From Planctomycetota bacterium (lineage in GTDB: Bacteria; Planctomycetota; Phycisphaerae; Phycisphaerales; Phycisphaeraceae): a stretch of 64,000 bases of DNA. The first letter of the stretch is position 1. The number at the start of each line of letters is the position of its first letter. The translations under genes and the position numbers were made by a program. Below the pieces are notes generated by a model, which was not told where the DNA came from, made no database searches, and saw nothing but the letters and a program-made list of their open reading frames with translations. Shown one piece after another: positions 3,055 through 58,763 of this stretch. The stretch spans positions 5,797 to 69,796 of the forward strand of contig JBCDHS010000008.1 in NCBI GenBank assembly GCA_038749735.1. Reading direction: 5' to 3'.

Positions 3055-4977
3055 GTGAGCAAGAAGACCCCGACAGCATCCAAGCCTGGCCGCGCGTCCG
3101 ATCGCCCCGAGCGGCGGGTTAAACCCCGGACCAAGGCCCCCGCCCCGTGCTACGACATGGGCATCGTGGGCAACGGTCGGACCGCGGCACTCATCGACAA
3201 GGATGGCTCGGTCGTCTTTATGTGCTTCCCCGACTTCGACTCCGGAGCGGTGTTCTGCGACCTGCTCTCGAAGGATAAGGGGGGTAAGTTCGGCATCGAG
3301 ATCGTCGGTGGTAAAACGGCCTGGCAGCGCTACGAGGACCATACCAATGTGCTGGCGACGCGGTTTGAGTCGAAGGACGGCGGGTTTGACGTGATCGATT
3401 TCATGCCACGCTACCGGTTGGACGGCGCGGAGGAGCCCTGCCACCCGCCTGACCTGGTGCGGGTGGTGCGTCGGGTCTGGGGCAAGCCGAAGCTCCGGGT
3501 GCGTTACAACCCCCAACTCGAGTTCGCCAAGGGCGAGACGGATACTCAGATCATTGGCCCGGGTCGGATCAAGAGTACGGTCGAGCGGCAGGAGAAGGGC
3601 ACGGGCGAGACCTACGAGTCGGTGTACCTGCACACGGACCTGGATGTCGAGAAGGTGCTCAAAGGTCGGCCGATTGAGTTGGCGGGTGAGAAGTTCCTGC
3701 TGCTGAGCTACAACGACAAGCTGCGGGAGCCGACAAACACGCTGATCCGGCTGATGCTGGCCAAGACCCATGCGTACTGGTTCAACTGGGCGTCTCATAC
3801 AACCCACCCGCCGCTGTACCGTGACGCGGTGGTGCGCTCGGCGCTAACACTCAAGCTGCTTCAGTTCGGGCCGAGCGGCGCCCTGCTCGCGGCCGCGACG
3901 ACGTCATTACCCGAGTCGATCGGCGAGGTGCGGAACTGGGACTACCGGTTCTGCTGGATCCGAGACGCCTCGATGACCGTCTCGGTCCTGCGACGCATCG
4001 GCAACACCGGGATGGCCTACCGATTTGTCGACTGGGTGATGGATACCGTCCCGACCAAGGACGACAACCTGCAGATCATGTACGGCATCCGCGGGGAGAA
4101 GAACCTGACCGAGAAGACCCTGGACCACCTCGACGGTTACATGGGTTCTAAGCCCGTGCGGGTTGGCAACGCCGCGTACAAGCAGAAGCAGCACGACATC
4201 TATGGCGCCGTGCTCGATGTGATCTGGCAGACCCTGCCGCACTTCGCCGACCGCTTCGACCGGATCGAGGAGGTCTGGACGCGGGTCCGCTCGGTGGTGC
4301 GGACGGTGGAGCGGCTCTGGCACCTGCCGGACCGAGGCATCTGGGAGATGCGGGGGATCAAGCGGCACTTTGTGTTTTCGAAGGTGCTGTGCTGGGTGGC
4401 GGTAGACCGTGCGGCGAAGATCGGCCGGGCGTTGGGCCGGGCGGAGTGGGCGGCTGAGCATGAAAGGCTCGCCGAGGAAATCCGGGCGGATGTGCAGCGC
4501 AAGGGCTGGAATGAAAAGGTCGGGGCTTACACCCAGTCCTATGGCAGCGAGGAATTGGACGCGTCCAACCTATTGATGCTGGACTACGGCTTCTGTTCAT
4601 CCCACGACCCGCGTTTTATCTCGACCGTCGAGCAGACCCAGAAGCACCTGGGTAGGGACGGGCTTCTCTACCGCTACAAGGGCAAGGACGACTTCGGCGA
4701 GCCGACCAGCGCGTTTACGATCTGCTCGTTCTGGATGGCCAAGGCCTTGGTGCGTATCGGTCGGCTGCAGGAGGGCCGGGACCTGTTTGAAGAGCTACTT
4801 GCCTGTACGAATCACGTCGGGCTGATGGCCGAGGACCTGGAGTTTAAGACCCGCCGGCAGCTGGGCAACTTCCCGCAAGCCTACTCTCACCTCGCGTTGA
4901 TCGACACGGCCCTTGCGATCAACGCCCAGGCGGGATGGACCGAGCCCACGGACCTGTCCGAGCGGGCGCTGTACTGA
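3055..4977 (+). CDS. Glycoside hydrolase family 15 (glucoamylase/trehalase-like)
   Basis: AAATTSLPE...RNWDYRFCWIRD, GIWEMRG and LGNFPQAYSH motifs. Confidence 0.92.
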   Translation: MSKKTPTASKPGRASDRPERRVKPRTKAPAPCYDMGIVGNGRTAALIDKDGSVVFMCFPDFDSGAVFCDLLSKDKGGKFGIEIVGGKTAWQRYEDHTNVLATRFESKDGGFDVIDFMPRYRLDGAEEPCHPPDLVRVVRRVWGKPKLRVRYNPQLEFAKGETDTQIIGPGRIKSTVERQEKGTGETYESVYLHTDLDVEKVLKGRPIELAGEKFLLLSYNDKLREPTNTLIRLMLAKTHAYWFNWASHTTHPPLYRDAVVRSALTLKLLQFGPSGALLAAATTSLPESIGEVRNWDYRFCWIRDASMTVSVLRRIGNTGMAYRFVDWVMDTVPTKDDNLQIMYGIRGEKNLTEKTLDHLDGYMGSKPVRVGNAAYKQKQHDIYGAVLDVIWQTLPHFADRFDRIEEVWTRVRSVVRTVERLWHLPDRGIWEMRGIKRHFVFSKVLCWVAVDRAAKIGRALGRAEWAAEHERLAEEIRADVQRKGWNEKVGAYTQSYGSEELDASNLLMLDYGFCSSHDPRFISTVEQTQKHLGRDGLLYRYKGKDDFGEPTSAFTICSFWMAKALVRIGRLQEGRDLFEELLACTNHVGLMAEDLEFKTRRQLGNFPQAYSHLALIDTALAINAQAGWTEPTDLSERALY

Positions 4978-54501: not shown

Positions 54502-56049
54502 ATGACCCTACACACACCACGCCTGCTGCTGCTCACCCTCGCCCTGACGGTCGGCCTACCCGCCGCGGGACAATCGGCGGCCCGGATGGCCCCGGCCGAC
54601 ACGCAGGTCTTCATCCACATCGAAGAACCCGCCGACTGGTTCGCCGCCCTGGCCGACGGTGCCATCGGTGACGCCGTCCGTCAGCAGATCGAAGAGGAAT
54701 CAGACCTCGGATTCCTCCTGGCCCTGCTGGGCATGGACTTTGACGAGTTCCTCGAGGCCTATTTCGGTGAAGAGGTGGTCGTCCTTGGGGCGTCGGCCGG
54801 CGAAGACGAAGGGCCGGGCATCATCCTGACCAAGGTCAGCCAGGACAACCGCGACCACCTGATCGACTCGTTTGATCTCAAACGGGCCGGGGCAATCGGT
54901 GACGCGCCGATGTGGGCCTCTCAGGACGGCAACGGCTACTTCGTCATGCTGGAGGACTGGGTCGCGTTCTGCGATATGGAATCGCTCGATTACATGCAGA
55001 CGGTGCTGGAGAACAAGCCGGCCGACGGCACCCTGGCCGACACCGACGCCTACGCCTACTGGACGGGCATGCTCGACATCGACCGCAACGCGACCGTGCT
55101 GTTCCTCGACGGCGAAGACAACCGCCACGCGATGAGCATCATCCGCAGCGGCAAGCTGATGGACATGACCTACGCCGGCCGCTCGCCCGACTTCGACGAC
55201 ATGATGCTCATGCTCGGCGACACCGAACTGGCCGACTTCGGCCCCCTGCCGATCCAAACCATCGCGGCGGTGTCGTTCAACCTCAAGGCCGACCCTGATC
55301 AGACAAACCCGTTGTTGGGCGGGCTTGACTTACTCACCTCGCCGACTTCATTCCGCGACGATATCCTGCCCAAGCTCGACACCCCGAGCCTGTTGTTCCT
55401 CGGCTCGGCTGGGGGTGAACAGACCGGGCTGGACGTGGACCTGCCGGTCGCGGGCTTCGCGGTGAAGATGAAGGACAGCTCGGCGGCGGCTGACTTACAG
55501 GCGATGATGGACCGCCTGGTACTGCTGGGCAATATGGCCACCGCAGAGACCGATGCCGGGCCGATCCCATTCAAGACCGTTGAGTACGGCGGTTCGACGC
55601 TTCGGATCGCCGAGGTGGGCAAGGTTATCGCGCCGTTTGCCGAGTGGCCGGAGCTCGAGCCGGTGCAACTGGTCTACGGCCAGGTCGGCGACTACTACGT
55701 GGTCTGCACCCAAGAAGCCTTCTTCAAGCAGGTTGTTGATGCGCACGCCGGTGGCCTTCCCGCCCGGATGCGTCAGGAAGGGGCCGGCCACCCGATGGCG
55801 GTCGCGCCGATCATGGCGATGACCGCTCGCCCCGACAGCCTCGGTCGCCTGCTGCGGACCTGGCTGCCGCTGATCGAGCAGGGCGAACTGCCCGAAGACA
55901 TCCAACTCGGGTTCGAAGCGCCGGGCGCGATGGGGCAGTTTCAGGACTTCATCCAACTGCTCGAACAGTACAGCGAGTTCAAGCTGCAGCTCTGGCGCGG
56001 TAAGGACGGCCTCTTGATCGGTCGGGGCCAGCTGGTTCCCCCGCTGTGA
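54502..56049 (+). CDS. Secreted acidic protein (DUF3352-like)
   Basis: Signal peptide; APADTQVFIHI start; LVYGQVGDYYVVCT; strong codon bias. Confidence 0.6.
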   Translation: MTLHTPRLLLLTLALTVGLPAAGQSAARMAPADTQVFIHIEEPADWFAALADGAIGDAVRQQIEEESDLGFLLALLGMDFDEFLEAYFGEEVVVLGASAGEDEGPGIILTKVSQDNRDHLIDSFDLKRAGAIGDAPMWASQDGNGYFVMLEDWVAFCDMESLDYMQTVLENKPADGTLADTDAYAYWTGMLDIDRNATVLFLDGEDNRHAMSIIRSGKLMDMTYAGRSPDFDDMMLMLGDTELADFGPLPIQTIAAVSFNLKADPDQTNPLLGGLDLLTSPTSFRDDILPKLDTPSLLFLGSAGGEQTGLDVDLPVAGFAVKMKDSSAAADLQAMMDRLVLLGNMATAETDAGPIPFKTVEYGGSTLRIAEVGKVIAPFAEWPELEPVQLVYGQVGDYYVVCTQEAFFKQVVDAHAGGLPARMRQEGAGHPMAVAPIMAMTARPDSLGRLLRTWLPLIEQGELPEDIQLGFEAPGAMGQFQDFIQLLEQYSEFKLQLWRGKDGLLIGRGQLVPPL

Positions 56050-56105
56050 TGCGTCTCATCCGATATGCCAAGCTCGGCAGGACGGCCGCAACCCCGAGGG
56101 ACGCC

Positions 56106-56129
56106 GCTCGTACGGAGCCTCGCCTTCGC
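56106..56129. repeat. Degenerate REP-like unit GCTCGTACGGAGCCTCGCCTTCGC
   Basis: Shares the GCGAGGCTC core with the intergenic element at 60652-60721. Confidence 0.35.
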
Positions 56130-56188
56130 TTTTGAATTGGAACAATTGGCTTCGTTTCTGGCCGTGCCTTGGCTCCCCCTCCCTCTTA

Positions 56189-56320
56189 GAACGTGTACGA
56201 GAAGGTGGGGCGGGCATCTTGCCCGCCGTTTGAGCACCGCTCGAAACAGGCCTTTTCACGACGCCGTCGTGACGGCAGGCTGGAAGCCTACCCCACCTAA
56301 GGCACTTCTCGTACACGTTC
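56189..56320. mobile_element. MITE (132 bp) with 16-bp perfect TIRs and TTA target duplication
   Basis: GAACGTGTACGAGAAG (56189-56204) / CTTCTCGTACACGTTC (56305-56320); TTA at 56186-88 and 56321-23. Confidence 0.75.
56205..56296. repeat. Inverted REP doublet (REPIN-like) inside the MITE
   Basis: GTGGGGCGGGCATCTTGCCCGCC (56205-56227) and GGCAGGCTGGAAGCCTACCCCAC (56274-56296). Each is a GTGG foot plus a short hairpin. Confidence 0.7.
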
Positions 56321-56510
56321 TTAGGGAGGGGGCGAGGGGAGGGGTAAGGCGTGGGATCAACCGCGGTATACGGTTAGCAAATTGGCAAGCAGCGCAAGCA
56401 TTCTGTTCGCAAGCTTCGACTCGATTCCGGACACCCGACCCTCCCCCCGGCCCCCTCCCTAAGGGGGAGGGATAGCAAGGCGGCAACGGCCACTATTGAC
56501 ACATAGCGCG

Positions 56511-58691
56511 CTAGCCGACGTCAATCAGGCCCAGCGACTCGCCATAGCTCTGCAACAGGACCTTGCGGAGCGCGGCGTGTTCGGGGGCGCTTAGCCGCCA
56601 GTCCCGCTCGATCATGGCCTGGGCGTCCTGTCGGGCGAGGGCCAAGAGGTCCATATCGTCGGGGATGACGGCCGTCCGCAGCGGCGGCATCCCCGACTGC
56701 CGGGTGCCGAAGAAGTCGCCCATGCCACGGATAGCCAGGTCCTGCTCGGCGATTTTGAACCCGTCGCTGGTCGCGGCGATCGCCTTCATACGGGCCTCCG
56801 CGTCCTCGGTCGTCGGGTCGGCGATGAACACGCAGAGCGGGCGTCGGGTCGAAGCGCCCCGCCCGATCCGGCCGCGCAGCTGGTGGAGCTGGGACAAGCC
56901 AAAGCGTTCGGCGTGCTCGACAATCATGACGCTGGCGTTGGGCACATCCACGCCGACCTCGATCACCGTCGTTGCCACCAGCAACTGGGCCTGCCCGGTA
57001 CGGAAGCGCTGCATGACCCGTTCCCGCTCCTCACGCGGCAATCGCCCGTGCACCTCGACCACCTCGTAGGGGGGGCCAAGCTTCTGCCTCAGGGTGGTCG
57101 CGGTGTCGGCCACGTTCTTGAGCATCGCGCCCGAGTCCTCGGACTGCCCAGGCCCGTCGATGACCGGGACGACGACGTAGGCCTGCTCCCCACGCGCGAG
57201 ACGGGCCTTGAGGTACGCGTACACCTCGTCAATCTTCTCCGGCCCGACCACGCGGCTCTGGATCGGGACCCGGCCCGGGGGTTTGCCGGTAATCGTCGAG
57301 ATATCCAGGTCGCCAAAGATCGTCAGGGACAGGGTCCGCGGGATCGGTGTTGCGGTCATAACTAACTGGTGGGGCACGCGCAATCTGCCCTGCTCATCGG
57401 TCTCGCCGGCCGAACGCAGCCGGGCCCGCTGCATCACGCCGAACCGGTGCTGTTCGTCGACTACCGCCACCGCCAGCTCTTTGAACCTGACCGCCTGGGT
57501 CACCAGCGCCTGCGTCCCCACCACGATGTCCGCCTCGCCCGAAACGATTTCTTCAAGCAATGCATTGCGTGCCGCACTGCCCGACGCCCCCTGCCCCGCG
57601 GTCAGCAGCCGGACACGGATCGACGAGCCTTTCAACATGCTGGAGATCGAGCGGTGGTGCTGCTCGGCGAGCAACTCGGTCGGCGCCATCATGGCCGCCT
57701 GCTTGCGCTGGGCGACCGCGGCAAGCATGGCATAGAGGGCGACAACCGTCTTGCCCGATCCGACATCGCCCTGGACCAGCCGGTTCATGGGTTGGGACTG
57801 GGACAAGTCGTCACGCAGTGTTTGGATGACCTTGTCCTGGCTGGGCGTCAGGACAAACGCGAAGCGCTCCCGGATGTGTCGATCAACGGCGTCGCTGACC
57901 AGGATTGCCGGGGCGGCCTGCCGCTGATGGACATAGGCCCGCTTCATCGCGATCCCGAGTTGAAGCAGCAGCAATTCGTTGTAAGCCAGCCGCCGCCGGG
58001 CCGCCAGATGATCCTCCGGCTCGGTCGGCCGATGGGCCTGGCGAAAAGCGGTCGCCAGGTCAGGCATGTTGTGCGCCGCCAGCAACTCGGCGGGCAACGG
58101 GTCTTCGAGCTTGGGCGTCACCCGCTCGATCGCGGTTGCGATCAGCTTCTCGATCGCTGATGAAGGCAGGCCCTGGGTCGCGGGGTAGACCGGCCGTAGA
58201 CGGCCGGCCTTGCCCGGCTGCTCCTGGGCCTCGTCTTCGCTCATCAGCTCCCACTTCGGGTTGACCATCTGCGGATAGCCGCTAAAGAGCTTCGCCTTGC
58301 CGTGTACGCGCAGCGGCTGGCCGGGCCTGATCCGATCACGCAGGTAGGCGGCGTTGAACCATGTCAACAACAGCCCGCCCGAGTCGTCCTGGAGCGTGGC
58401 TTCGTAGCGCCCCTTCTTGCCGAACTGCCCGCCGACCCAGCGGGAGGCGGCGATGACGCCACGGGCGGACCCGACGGATTGGCCGTCCGCCGGCAGGTCT
58501 GCGATCAGGCCCTCGGCCGCCTCCGGTTCGTAACGCACCGGCAGGTGGCGTAGGAGATCCGTAACCGTATGGATCTCCAACCGTGCTAATAGCCCGGCCT
58601 TGGCCGGGCCGACGCCCGGCAGCTTCTTGACGCTCGCGCCGGGTCTCAGCGGTTCAGCATTACCTGCAGATGACTCGGTCAACTCAGACAT
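56511..58691 (-). CDS. recG: ATP-dependent DNA helicase RecG
   Basis: Wedge domain, GDVGSGKT, DEQH, MTATPIPR and QLRGRIGRG motifs; start revised to 58691. Confidence 0.96.
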   Translation of the reverse strand: MSELTESSAGNAEPLRPGASVKKLPGVGPAKAGLLARLEIHTVTDLLRHLPVRYEPEAAEGLIADLPADGQSVGSARGVIAASRWVGGQFGKKGRYEATLQDDSGGLLLTWFNAAYLRDRIRPGQPLRVHGKAKLFSGYPQMVNPKWELMSEDEAQEQPGKAGRLRPVYPATQGLPSSAIEKLIATAIERVTPKLEDPLPAELLAAHNMPDLATAFRQAHRPTEPEDHLAARRRLAYNELLLLQLGIAMKRAYVHQRQAAPAILVSDAVDRHIRERFAFVLTPSQDKVIQTLRDDLSQSQPMNRLVQGDVGSGKTVVALYAMLAAVAQRKQAAMMAPTELLAEQHHRSISSMLKGSSIRVRLLTAGQGASGSAARNALLEEIVSGEADIVVGTQALVTQAVRFKELAVAVVDEQHRFGVMQRARLRSAGETDEQGRLRVPHQLVMTATPIPRTLSLTIFGDLDISTITGKPPGRVPIQSRVVGPEKIDEVYAYLKARLARGEQAYVVVPVIDGPGQSEDSGAMLKNVADTATTLRQKLGPPYEVVEVHGRLPREERERVMQRFRTGQAQLLVATTVIEVGVDVPNASVMIVEHAERFGLSQLHQLRGRIGRGASTRRPLCVFIADPTTEDAEARMKAIAATSDGFKIAEQDLAIRGMGDFFGTRQSGMPPLRTAVIPDDMDLLALARQDAQAMIERDWRLSAPEHAALRKVLLQSYGESLGLIDVG

Positions 58692-58697
58692 CAACAG

Positions 58698-58763
58698 ATC
58701 GTAACCGTCCGGCCTGATCCACGCGGGCAGGCTGGGCCCGGACACGCTGCACTAGAATACAAT
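58698..58763. promoter_or_regulatory. Divergent -10 boxes: TACGAT (minus, recG) and TACAAT/TAGAAT (plus, gntR)
   Basis: TACGAT at 58703-58698 is 6 nt before the recG ATG; TACAAT at 58758-63 is 8 nt before ATG 58772. Confidence 0.55.

Follow-up and report, generated by a model that had tools for sequence, protein, structure and literature searches.

REPIN-RAYT systems (Bertels & Rainey 2011, PMC3116915; Nunvar et al. 2010, PMC2817692) and GTAG-tagged REPs (Di Nocera et al. 2013, PMC3733652) have been described before, and a GTGG variant of the REP foot has already been reported in a PVC bacterium (PMC3733652). REPINs have been described as replicators that spread slowly, are inherited vertically and depend on a domesticated RAYT present in a single copy, whereas MITEs have been described as fast, short-lived parasites of DDE transposases, and the two are regarded as distinct in both dynamics and dependence (bioRxiv 10.1101/2021.07.10.451892). 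The insertion sequences IS1397, ISKpn1 and ISPpu9/10 target REP/BIME sequences (Tobes & Pareja 2006; ISPpu9 in PMC12288879), and the 'bizarre' TIRs of Pseudomonas consist of degenerate GTAG units and unrelated stem-loops (Di Nocera et al. 2013, PMC3733652). REPs, REPINs and RAYTs, including those of PVC bacteria and those with GTGG feet, are known already, as are IS5-family MITEs, nested small repeats and the insertion of ISs into REPs. IS5-family ISs of the IS1031/IS427 type generate T-N-A duplications, and the eukaryotic PIF/Harbinger-Tourist elements generate TWA duplications. In the literature that we searched, we found no account of REPINs that make up the interior of DDE-type MITEs on several occasions and between different transposon ends, nor of such REPINs multiplying in a genome that lacks their RAYT.

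We analyzed a 64,000-nt stretch of DNA (the window; C8:5797-69796) from the Phycisphaeraceae genome G000, a 3.75-Mb draft of 139 contigs with 63.5% GC and 97.5% completeness. We conclude, with a probability of about 0.85, that one intergenic locus of the window records three mobile-DNA events, of which the innermost is the oldest: the capture of a REPIN in an IS5-family MITE, the insertion of a dispersed repeat (the H element) and the insertion of the MITE, with the REPIN being a passenger. Judged by its sequence, the inserted unit is a chimeric REPIN-in-MITE, and the REPIN appears to spread in G000 on the machinery of a different transposon. The first-pass annotation had outlined a nested repeat at 56171-56476, and all of its features are present in the sequence where they had been placed. 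Its central proposal, that a REP doublet hitchhikes on a DDE-mobilized MITE, is upheld by the presence of the same TIR on an IS5-family IS, by T-N-A duplications and by REPs that match the flanks of RAYT genes.

According to the list of open reading frames, the whole nested structure lies between two convergent genes. The upstream gene (54502-56049, forward strand) encodes 515 aa without any family match in a Pfam search, and its orthologues converge on recG in the genomes G001, G002 and G007. The downstream gene is recG itself (56511-58745, reverse strand; 744 aa; Pfam DEAD, Helicase_C, RecG_wedge and RecG_dom3_C), whose stop codon, read as CTA on the forward strand (56511-56513), adjoins the right end of the H element. 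A spacer of about 90 bp (56050-56139), absent from sister species, extends from the upstream stop codon to H. A search with RecG returned distant Phycisphaeraceae MAGs as the nearest homologues (58-69% identity) and no sister strain of G000. Even among the closest relatives, the DNA identity of recG is just 73-76%, and none of these genomes is a near-identical strain.

The 132-bp MITE (type A; 56189-56320, forward strand) was delimited by blastn, nhmmer and alignment as one of about 42 full-length copies in the genome, and it is non-coding. Its left TIR, GAACGTGTACGAGAAG (56189-56204, forward strand), has one mismatch to the left end of an IS5-family IS, and its right TIR (56305-56320, reverse strand) is the exact reverse complement of the left one. 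The sequence and the comparison of copies identify the flanking TTA triplets (56186-56188 and 56321-56323) as the two copies of a target-site duplication. An asymmetric 8-nt linker, CTAAGGCA (56297-56304, forward strand), separates the interior from the right TIR and is kept in every type-A copy. The element, its perfect 16-bp TIRs and its TTA flanks are therefore exactly as first annotated. That annotation would have been undone by a TIR occurring once in the genome, with neither a related IS nor an empty site. The TIR has 2 matches in the window, compared to 0.03 expected by chance, and 55 exact occurrences in G000, and both a related IS and empty sites exist.

The type-A copies comprise 33 with 93-98% identity and about nine that belong to older subfamilies, and a separate count of TIR-core junctions gave 43 in G000, compared to 0-12 in each of 14 congeneric genomes. 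Folded as single-stranded DNA, the 132-bp unit has a free energy of -44 kcal/mol (z = -7.8 versus shuffled sequences), and in the predicted fold the TIR stem closes a junction of four hairpins. Because of this z-score and the recurrence of the unit throughout the genome, the nested repeat is far beyond chance.

Perfect 3-bp T-N-A direct repeats flank 34 of the 42 copies (TAA 17, TTA 12, TGA 4 and TCA 1), which bears out the earlier reading of TWA-type duplications with the pattern broadened to T-W/N-A. The base preceding the duplication is C in 23 of these 34 cases and the base following it is G in 24, yielding a target consensus of C-TNA-G. The element thus combines TIRs, a target-site duplication of fixed length, small size, many copies, an IS with the same ends and empty sites, as a MITE does. 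All 42 copies in G000 contain the REPIN. The suggestion that the MITE carries or collects REP cargo consequently stands for carriage, as the cargo is a fixed part of 42 out of 42 copies, and falls for cargo that is variable or collected.

We found the putative partner of the MITE at three contig ends (C30, C66 and C27), mutually 100% identical over 132-137 bp. Each presents a TTA followed by GAACGTGTACGAAAAG, a hairpin and an ORF that starts MTRTSYPSDLTDEQWPFIE and encodes ...SYPSDLTDEQWPFIE... The terminal sequence GAACGTGTACGAAAAG (in short form, GAACGTGTACGARAAG ends) matches the left TIR of one MITE subfamily exactly and differs from that of the main subfamily at a single base. The 16-bp TIRs are the only sequence that the MITE and the IS have in common. 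Of the exact partner, 26 N-terminal residues are assembled (SYPSDLTDEQW...), forming an IS5-type N-terminus, and the body and right end are missing from the G000 assembly, probably as a collapsed repeat in a dropped contig shorter than 1 kb. The only longer element in G000 with the same TIRs is a degenerate 890-bp relative (C12:77214-78103), in which we identified DUF4096 (E 2e-10), DDE_Tnp_1 (E 2e-11) and also DDE_Tnp_1_2. Since the body of the IS is unassembled, it is the three identical left ends and the degenerate relative that point to an intact, active transposase.

These left ends would be those of the autonomous IS with matching TIRs that the first reading had implied, and the shared TIR identifies an IS5-family IS as the probable partner of the MITE. 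This IS would belong to the IS1031-type subgroup (ISfinder), which has a T-N-A / C-TNA-G target and a 3-bp duplication. The same target and duplication are found here, and TTA adjoins all three IS ends. The IS left end occurs in G000 only, as the 14 sister genomes gave a single weak match.

The outer layer of the locus is the H element (56140-56511), a dispersed, TA-flanked repeat that the MITE splits into a left part (56140-56188) and a right part (56324-56511), as determined by blastn and by alignment with 16 other copies. The arms of its left hairpin, CCCCCTCCC (56175-56183) and GGGAGGGGG (56324-56332), form the inverted repeat I9 with the MITE in the loop. Excising the MITE together with one TTA restores CCCCCTCCC-TCTTA-GGGAGGGGG, so that the hairpin reappears as had been claimed. 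The right hairpin, CCCTCCC-TAAGG-GGGAGGG (56453-56471), holds an unoccupied CTAAG site. Once the MITE is taken out, the joined flanks align over 200-250 bp with at least 25 other loci, and the resulting 242-bp consensus, TA/GAGCAATTGGC...GCCGCTC/TA, contains two G/C-rich hairpins and is represented at 64 loci in G000, 26 of them with at least 180 bp and thus near full length. The host repeat had been introduced as a palindrome with a second, inverted copy of its hairpin; the inverted hairpin pair is real, with its second member at 56453-56471, but the host, 242 bp long and flanked by TA, is a MITE-like element rather than a simple palindrome.

Empty sites were found both at the orthologous position and among paralogous copies. 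In G001, G002 and G007, the same convergent gene pair has only 0-14 bp between its stop codons (...CCGTTCTAGCCGAC...), compared to 461 bp in G000, which indicates that H entered at the TA within the CTAG shared by the convergent stop codons. The last base of H and the duplicated TA still supply the stop codon of recG. In 16 other H copies the left hairpin is uninterrupted. The consensus loop of this hairpin is CCCAG and not TTA, and the TTA in the loop is therefore a peculiarity of the H copy in the window.

It had also been proposed that the MITE targets the loop of the host hairpin. We rejected loop-specific targeting in favor of a preference for C-TNA-G, as only 2 of the 42 MITEs lie inside H hairpin loops, namely the copy in the window and one in a right hairpin (C1:150262). 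Two MITEs abut an H terminus, and for seven the nearest H locus is no more than 40 bp away. There are 1,487 CTWAG sites in G000, of which 23 are in H loci; 2 out of 42 and 23 out of 1,487 are raw counts, uncorrected for the bias that confines surviving insertions to the small intergenic fraction of the genome. The sequence that the MITE prefers is simply present in the loops and at the termini of H.

The interior of the MITE is a REPIN core, GGTGGGG ... CCCCACC (56204-56298, forward strand), defined by the covariance model R1 and by end architecture that is the same in RAYT units. It opens with REP 1 (56205-56227, forward strand), a GTGG foot with the hairpin H1, GGCGGGCA-TCT-TGCCCGCC, and it closes with the inverted REP 2 (56274-56296, reverse strand), in which the hairpin H4, GGCAGGCT-GGA-AGCCTACC, is followed by CCAC. 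The two facing, GTGG-footed REP hairpins of the first-pass annotation are therefore present, and they constitute an inverted doublet (inverted repeat I3) with a GTGG foot and an 8-bp stem at each end of the core, while sister genomes have GTAG variants. Between the REPs are two small hairpins that extend the features first described, H2 (TTTGAGC-ACC-GCTCGAA, 56229-56245) and H3 (TCACGAC-GCC-GTCGTGA, 56256-56272), both on the forward strand and both with compensatory changes across copies.

The comparison of MITE subfamilies and related copies shows compensatory substitutions in all four hairpins. The 30 pairs of the four-hairpin model are 91.5% paired, and in 10 of them both partners change, with 48 double-change cells compared to 18 ± 3 in shuffles (0 of 500 reached this number), and pairing falls to 32-50% in slid controls. 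The long REP:REP hairpin of the classical REPIN fold was rejected, as its covariation is no better than that of shuffles. Compensatory changes between MITE subfamilies show that the hairpins remained under selection after capture, which a pure passenger model does not predict; the RAYTs of sister genomes may have acted on the REPs carried by MITEs.

This core recurs throughout the genus. The covariance model R1 detects the core in 14 of 14 other genomes of the same genus and almost nowhere outside it, and the closed genome G002 contains many TIR-less cores, which carry the sister REP variants GTGGGGCAGACATTCCTGTCTGCC and GTAGGACAGGCATTCCTGCCTGTC. RAYT units have the layout [GT(A/G)G-REP + small hairpin]-rayT-[small hairpin + REP] in six of the eight that were examined. 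In G002, for example, a 152-aa RAYT with HVH and Y motifs (G002:C1:1312938-1313393; 88.6 bits with NCBIfam REP_Tyr_transpos, NF047646, cut-off 80 bits) sits in a unit arranged as [GTGGGG-REP][small hairpin]-rayT-[small hairpin][REP-CCCCAC]. With its gene removed, such a unit equals the four-hairpin core, and by the definition of Bertels and Rainey (PMC3116915) the interior of the MITE is accordingly a REPIN, each end of which has one additional hairpin.

RAYT subgroups pair with particular REP variants. A RAYT in G012 (G012:C49:10104-10535) is flanked by GTGGGGTGGGCATC(C/T)TGCCCGCC, which is the MITE variant but for one base; GTGGGGTGGGCATCYTGCCCGCC, the REP variant of the MITE, lies on both of its sides, and the GTT and CGGC linkers are also common to both. 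The RAYT units of G002, G006, G009, G013 and G014 carry sister REP variants. RAYT genes with flanking REPs score 88.6 and 205.8 bits, above the cut-off, and these same variants confirm that the internal GTGG hairpins are RAYT-type REPs. Genes above the cut-off occur in 13 of the 15 genomes of the genus, the two without being G000 and a 70%-complete MAG.

In the G000 assembly, no RAYT exceeds the NF047646 cut-off (the best match, at C15, reaches 61 of the 80 bits), tblastn finds no close RAYT homologue, and no RAYT has flanking REPs of the GTGGGGCGGGC type carried by the MITE. A RAYT flanked by these REPs had been anticipated; one exists in sister genomes, with the MITE variant at G012:C49, but not in the G000 assembly. 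Two Y1-type genes are present, and neither was retained as the cognate RAYT. The one on C38, the only PF01797 match in G000, is flanked by another REP family, GCGAGCCGGGGCCTGTGGCCCCGG, with at least 94 copies, and the Y1-like gene on C15, at 61 bits, has unrelated upstream hairpins. Outside the MITEs, G000 has hardly any GTGG-type REPs: there are two cores, both decayed and without TIRs, and a few isolated hairpins. In a 139-contig draft that is 97.5% complete, a RAYT could sit in a gap; the gene has more plausibly been lost from G000 than left unassembled. As a side observation, valS hosts the G012:C49-type RAYT subgroup in five sister species and is uninterrupted in G000. Given that G000 has no detectable cognate RAYT, its 42-43 copies would be owed to a DDE transposase and not to HUH-type transposition of single-stranded DNA.

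The same core was found between other types of TIR. Within the genus, it lies between at least three further TIR types with duplications of 2, 8 and about 10 bp. In G000, the cores on C84 and at C4:147056 lie between inverted copies of CAGGGCAATCGCAYCTG, and their direct repeats measure about 10 bp. In G002, type B (cTA/GGGTCTGTCTGA...TCAGACAAACCC/TAg) duplicates TA in a CTAG target and occupies seven loci, and type C, (GGTC)GTGGTTCAC...GTGAACCAC(GAC), has 8-bp duplications in all five copies that are readable on both sides. A fifth TIR type occurs in another genome (L016). Type-A cores cluster across species, with 94% identity between the main subfamily of G000 and G012 and 88% between the second subfamily (sub2) and G010. 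The type-B and type-C cores of G002 are 92% identical to each other and nearest to the naked REPINs of G002, with the type-A cores being less alike. This clustering points to several captures, of which type A is old and shared, and has been recently amplified only where the matching IS is present.

We propose that a REPIN would have been enclosed by the 16-bp TIRs of an IS5-family IS in an ancestor within this Phycisphaeraceae genus, producing the 132-bp chimeric MITE. The captured REPIN would have been a gene-less doublet of RAYT-unit ends, each consisting of a GT(A/G)G-footed REP hairpin and a small inner hairpin. In G000, the H element would have been inserted where the stop codons of the 515-aa ORF and recG abut to form a CTAG, at its TA. 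A type-A MITE would then have followed, landing in a CTTAG that happened to be in the loop of the left hairpin of H and duplicating its TTA. We infer that this last step was carried out in trans by the DDE transposase of the IS5-family partner.

The order of capture could also be the reverse. A TIR palindrome of about 40 bp, GAACGTGTACGAGAAG-CTAAGGCA-CTTCTCGTACACGTTC, would have come first, and a RAYT would have inserted the REPIN into its single-stranded loop, with the other TIR palindromes being invaded likewise. HUH transposases (IS200/IS605) act on single-stranded DNA and hairpin loops are single-stranded, and such an insertion would explain why the REPIN is exactly central between the TIRs and why its borders (GGTGGGG...CCCCAC[C]) are alike in all five TIR types, at most 10 nt from each TIR. 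The resemblance of the type-B and type-C cores in G002 to each other and to the local TIR-less REPINs suggests, in turn, repeated local capture. Yet the empty TIR-loop-TIR palindromes that this order would leave were not found: in G000, each pair of type-A TIRs has a spacing of 116 bp or else is part of an IS end, and all type-B TIR pairs in G002 enclose a core, with two isolated one-mismatch matches besides. We therefore regard the reverse order as unlikely, although it is the strongest of the competing explanations. A far more radical departure from enclosure by IS ends would have a tyrosine (HUH) transposase move the entire 132-bp unit, TIRs included, in the manner of a TIRYT/TIRtron, with the likeness to IS5 being coincidental. 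HUH/IS200-type transposition leaves no target duplication, yet exact 3-bp T-N-A repeats flank 34 of 42 copies, and the 16-nt TIR is found in identical form, with its TTA flank, at three ends of an IS5-family IS. Some RAYT-like genes are indeed flanked by long TIRs instead of REPs (Di Nocera et al. 2013, PMC3733652), and G000 does have two Y1-type genes; unrelated repeats flank both of them, and we consider this mode of transposition extremely improbable.

The remaining alternative is that the host keeps the hairpins as a functional module, for termination, mRNA stabilization or protein binding between convergent genes, to which the MITE and REPIN labels would be secondary. The structure-preserving substitutions in all four hairpins and the placement between convergent genes would fit such a role, and in enterobacteria REP/BIME sequences bind gyrase and IHF and stabilize mRNA (PMC3184786). 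Nevertheless, selection on how the element itself propagates would be just as likely to produce covariation among multicopy sequences, and three sister species have no spacer at this locus. Neither the MITE nor H contains a GC-rich hairpin followed by a T-run; the one weak terminator-like site of the region (56113-56128 plus CTTTTGAATT) is in the spacer, outside both elements, and the terminator role once suggested for the structure was accordingly dropped. An Rfam scan of the region matched no family at the gathering score, with sub-threshold look-alikes of miRNA hairpins over the long inverted repeat of H only. A host function as the main explanation is thus improbable, though less so than transposition by an HUH enzyme, and the capture of a REPIN by an IS5-family MITE is the reading that we retain.

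At the scale of the genus, we tentatively suggest that REPINs are seeds or preferred passengers for MITE formation, enclosed independently by at least four types of DDE transposon (duplications of 3, 2, 8 and about 10 bp), a proposal to which we give somewhat less than even odds. Such enclosure would offer REPINs a fast route of spread that is independent of RAYTs, and in G000 the REPIN would have outlived the loss of its RAYT, with more than 40 copies. If so, the compensatory changes that the hairpins keep accumulating would mean that REPIN structure itself benefits the chimeric MITE or the host. The locus and its relatives in the genus present a REPIN and a MITE, treated as distinct kinds of selfish DNA, in fused form and thereby bridge the two. 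They provide a natural system for studying the fate of a REPIN population after its RAYT disappears, the selection on REP hairpins beyond recognition by RAYTs and the origin of new MITE families. They also call for caution in annotation, as repeat finders will call these elements either REPs or MITEs, yet both names apply.

Compared to described REPIN-RAYT systems, the core studied here has the same GT(A/G)G-footed inverted doublets, the same REPs directly flanking single RAYT genes, the same pairing of REP variants with RAYT subgroups and many gene-less doublets in intergenic DNA. It differs in having a second small conserved hairpin at each end, four hairpins in all, and in that local hairpins covary instead of a long REP:REP pairing. 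Moreover, the doublet in G000 lies between TIRs of the DDE type, accompanied by target duplications, and no cognate RAYT is detectable there. The unit resembles IS5-family MITEs in its short TIRs, 3-bp T-N-A duplication, palindromic C-TNA-G target and absence of coding capacity, and its partner IS, of about 0.9 kb, would have DUF4096 and DDE domains, as read on the degenerate relative. Unlike in those MITEs, the whole interior comes from an element of the HUH/RAYT class, leaving the 16-bp TIRs as all that is common with the IS. As with the ISs that target REPs, a palindromic repeat holds a transposable element in its loop, and mobile elements are physically tied to REP-like DNA; here, however, the REPs are inside the transposon and are not its target, and the insertion into the H loop fits the C-TNA-G preference. 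BIMEs, mosaic repeats and TIRtrons/TIRYT are likewise composites of REPs and unrelated inverted repeats. The TIRs of TIRtrons/TIRYT flank tyrosine-transposase genes and are accompanied by no target duplications, whereas those enclosing the present core are of the DDE-transposon type and are accompanied by duplications that measure 3, 2, 8 or about 10 bp, depending on the TIR type.

The H family, a set of TA-flanked dispersed repeats, has 63 members elsewhere in the same draft genome, G000, besides the copy into which the MITE inserted (window 56140-56511). Its 242-bp consensus contains two poly-G/C hairpins and has the TIR GAGCAATTGGC...; no partner IS was identified for the family. Several MITE copies in G000 lie at or adjoining H termini. 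From the stop codon of the upstream ORF to H runs a spacer of about 90 bp (window 56050-56139), for which neither a counterpart in the sister species nor a repeat match was found. The sole terminator-like hairpin of the region, which is weak, lies within this spacer (56113-56128 plus CTTTTGAATT).

Outside the window, at C84:~3590-3740 and C4:~147030-147185 of G000, we found a second chimeric MITE type with the same REPIN core as the 132-bp type A element. Here the core is enclosed by CAGGGCAATCGCAYCTG inverted repeats, and the direct repeats measure about 10 bp. The left end of one copy of the 132-bp MITE beyond the window (C31:18144-18293) is tandemly duplicated over 19 bp, the TIR plus GGTGGGGC being repeated. 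Several more related IS5-family ISs are present in G000, with diverged TIRs (e.g. GATCATGTACGAGAAG and GAACGTATAAGAGAAG), and the assembly is broken by them at contig ends. They are located at C34:1-259, C36:1-210, C1:1-195, the end of C13, the starts of C60 and C9, and the ends of C4 and C74, as well as at C8:102159-102283. The IS5-family load of this genome is sizeable and unassembled.

G000 also carries, outside the window, a Y1/HUH transposase-like gene of 165 aa (HVH...Y; PF01797 at 22 bits) at C38:20900-23277 (locus L001). All around it lie clustered copies of a REP family other than the MITE's (GCGAGCCGGGGCCTGTGGCCCCGG), which numbers at least 94 copies across the genome. A second Y1-like gene, of about 196 aa (HYH...Y), lies outside the window at C15:18150-18836; its match to the RAYT family NF047646, at 61 bits, falls short of the 80-bit cut-off. 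Upstream the gene has its own hairpin pair, GGCAGTCCCCGCT...AGCGGGGACTGCC.

At least five sister species carry a complete RAYT unit inside valS, in frame and with no stop codon (L101, at G012:C49, locus 1440-1990; also L097, L098, L099 and L100). The unit consists of REP and hairpin, rayT, then hairpin and REP, and spans about 195 codons. It separates the '...WYVKVTDD...' block of valyl-tRNA synthetase from the '...FTPERYAKTF...' block and lies within open frames of 911-1314 aa. The same two ValRS blocks are 12 bp apart in G000 (C4:2376-106, outside the window), and therefore the RAYT site in its valS is empty. An essential aminoacyl-tRNA synthetase gene would appear to tolerate a whole REPtron in frame.
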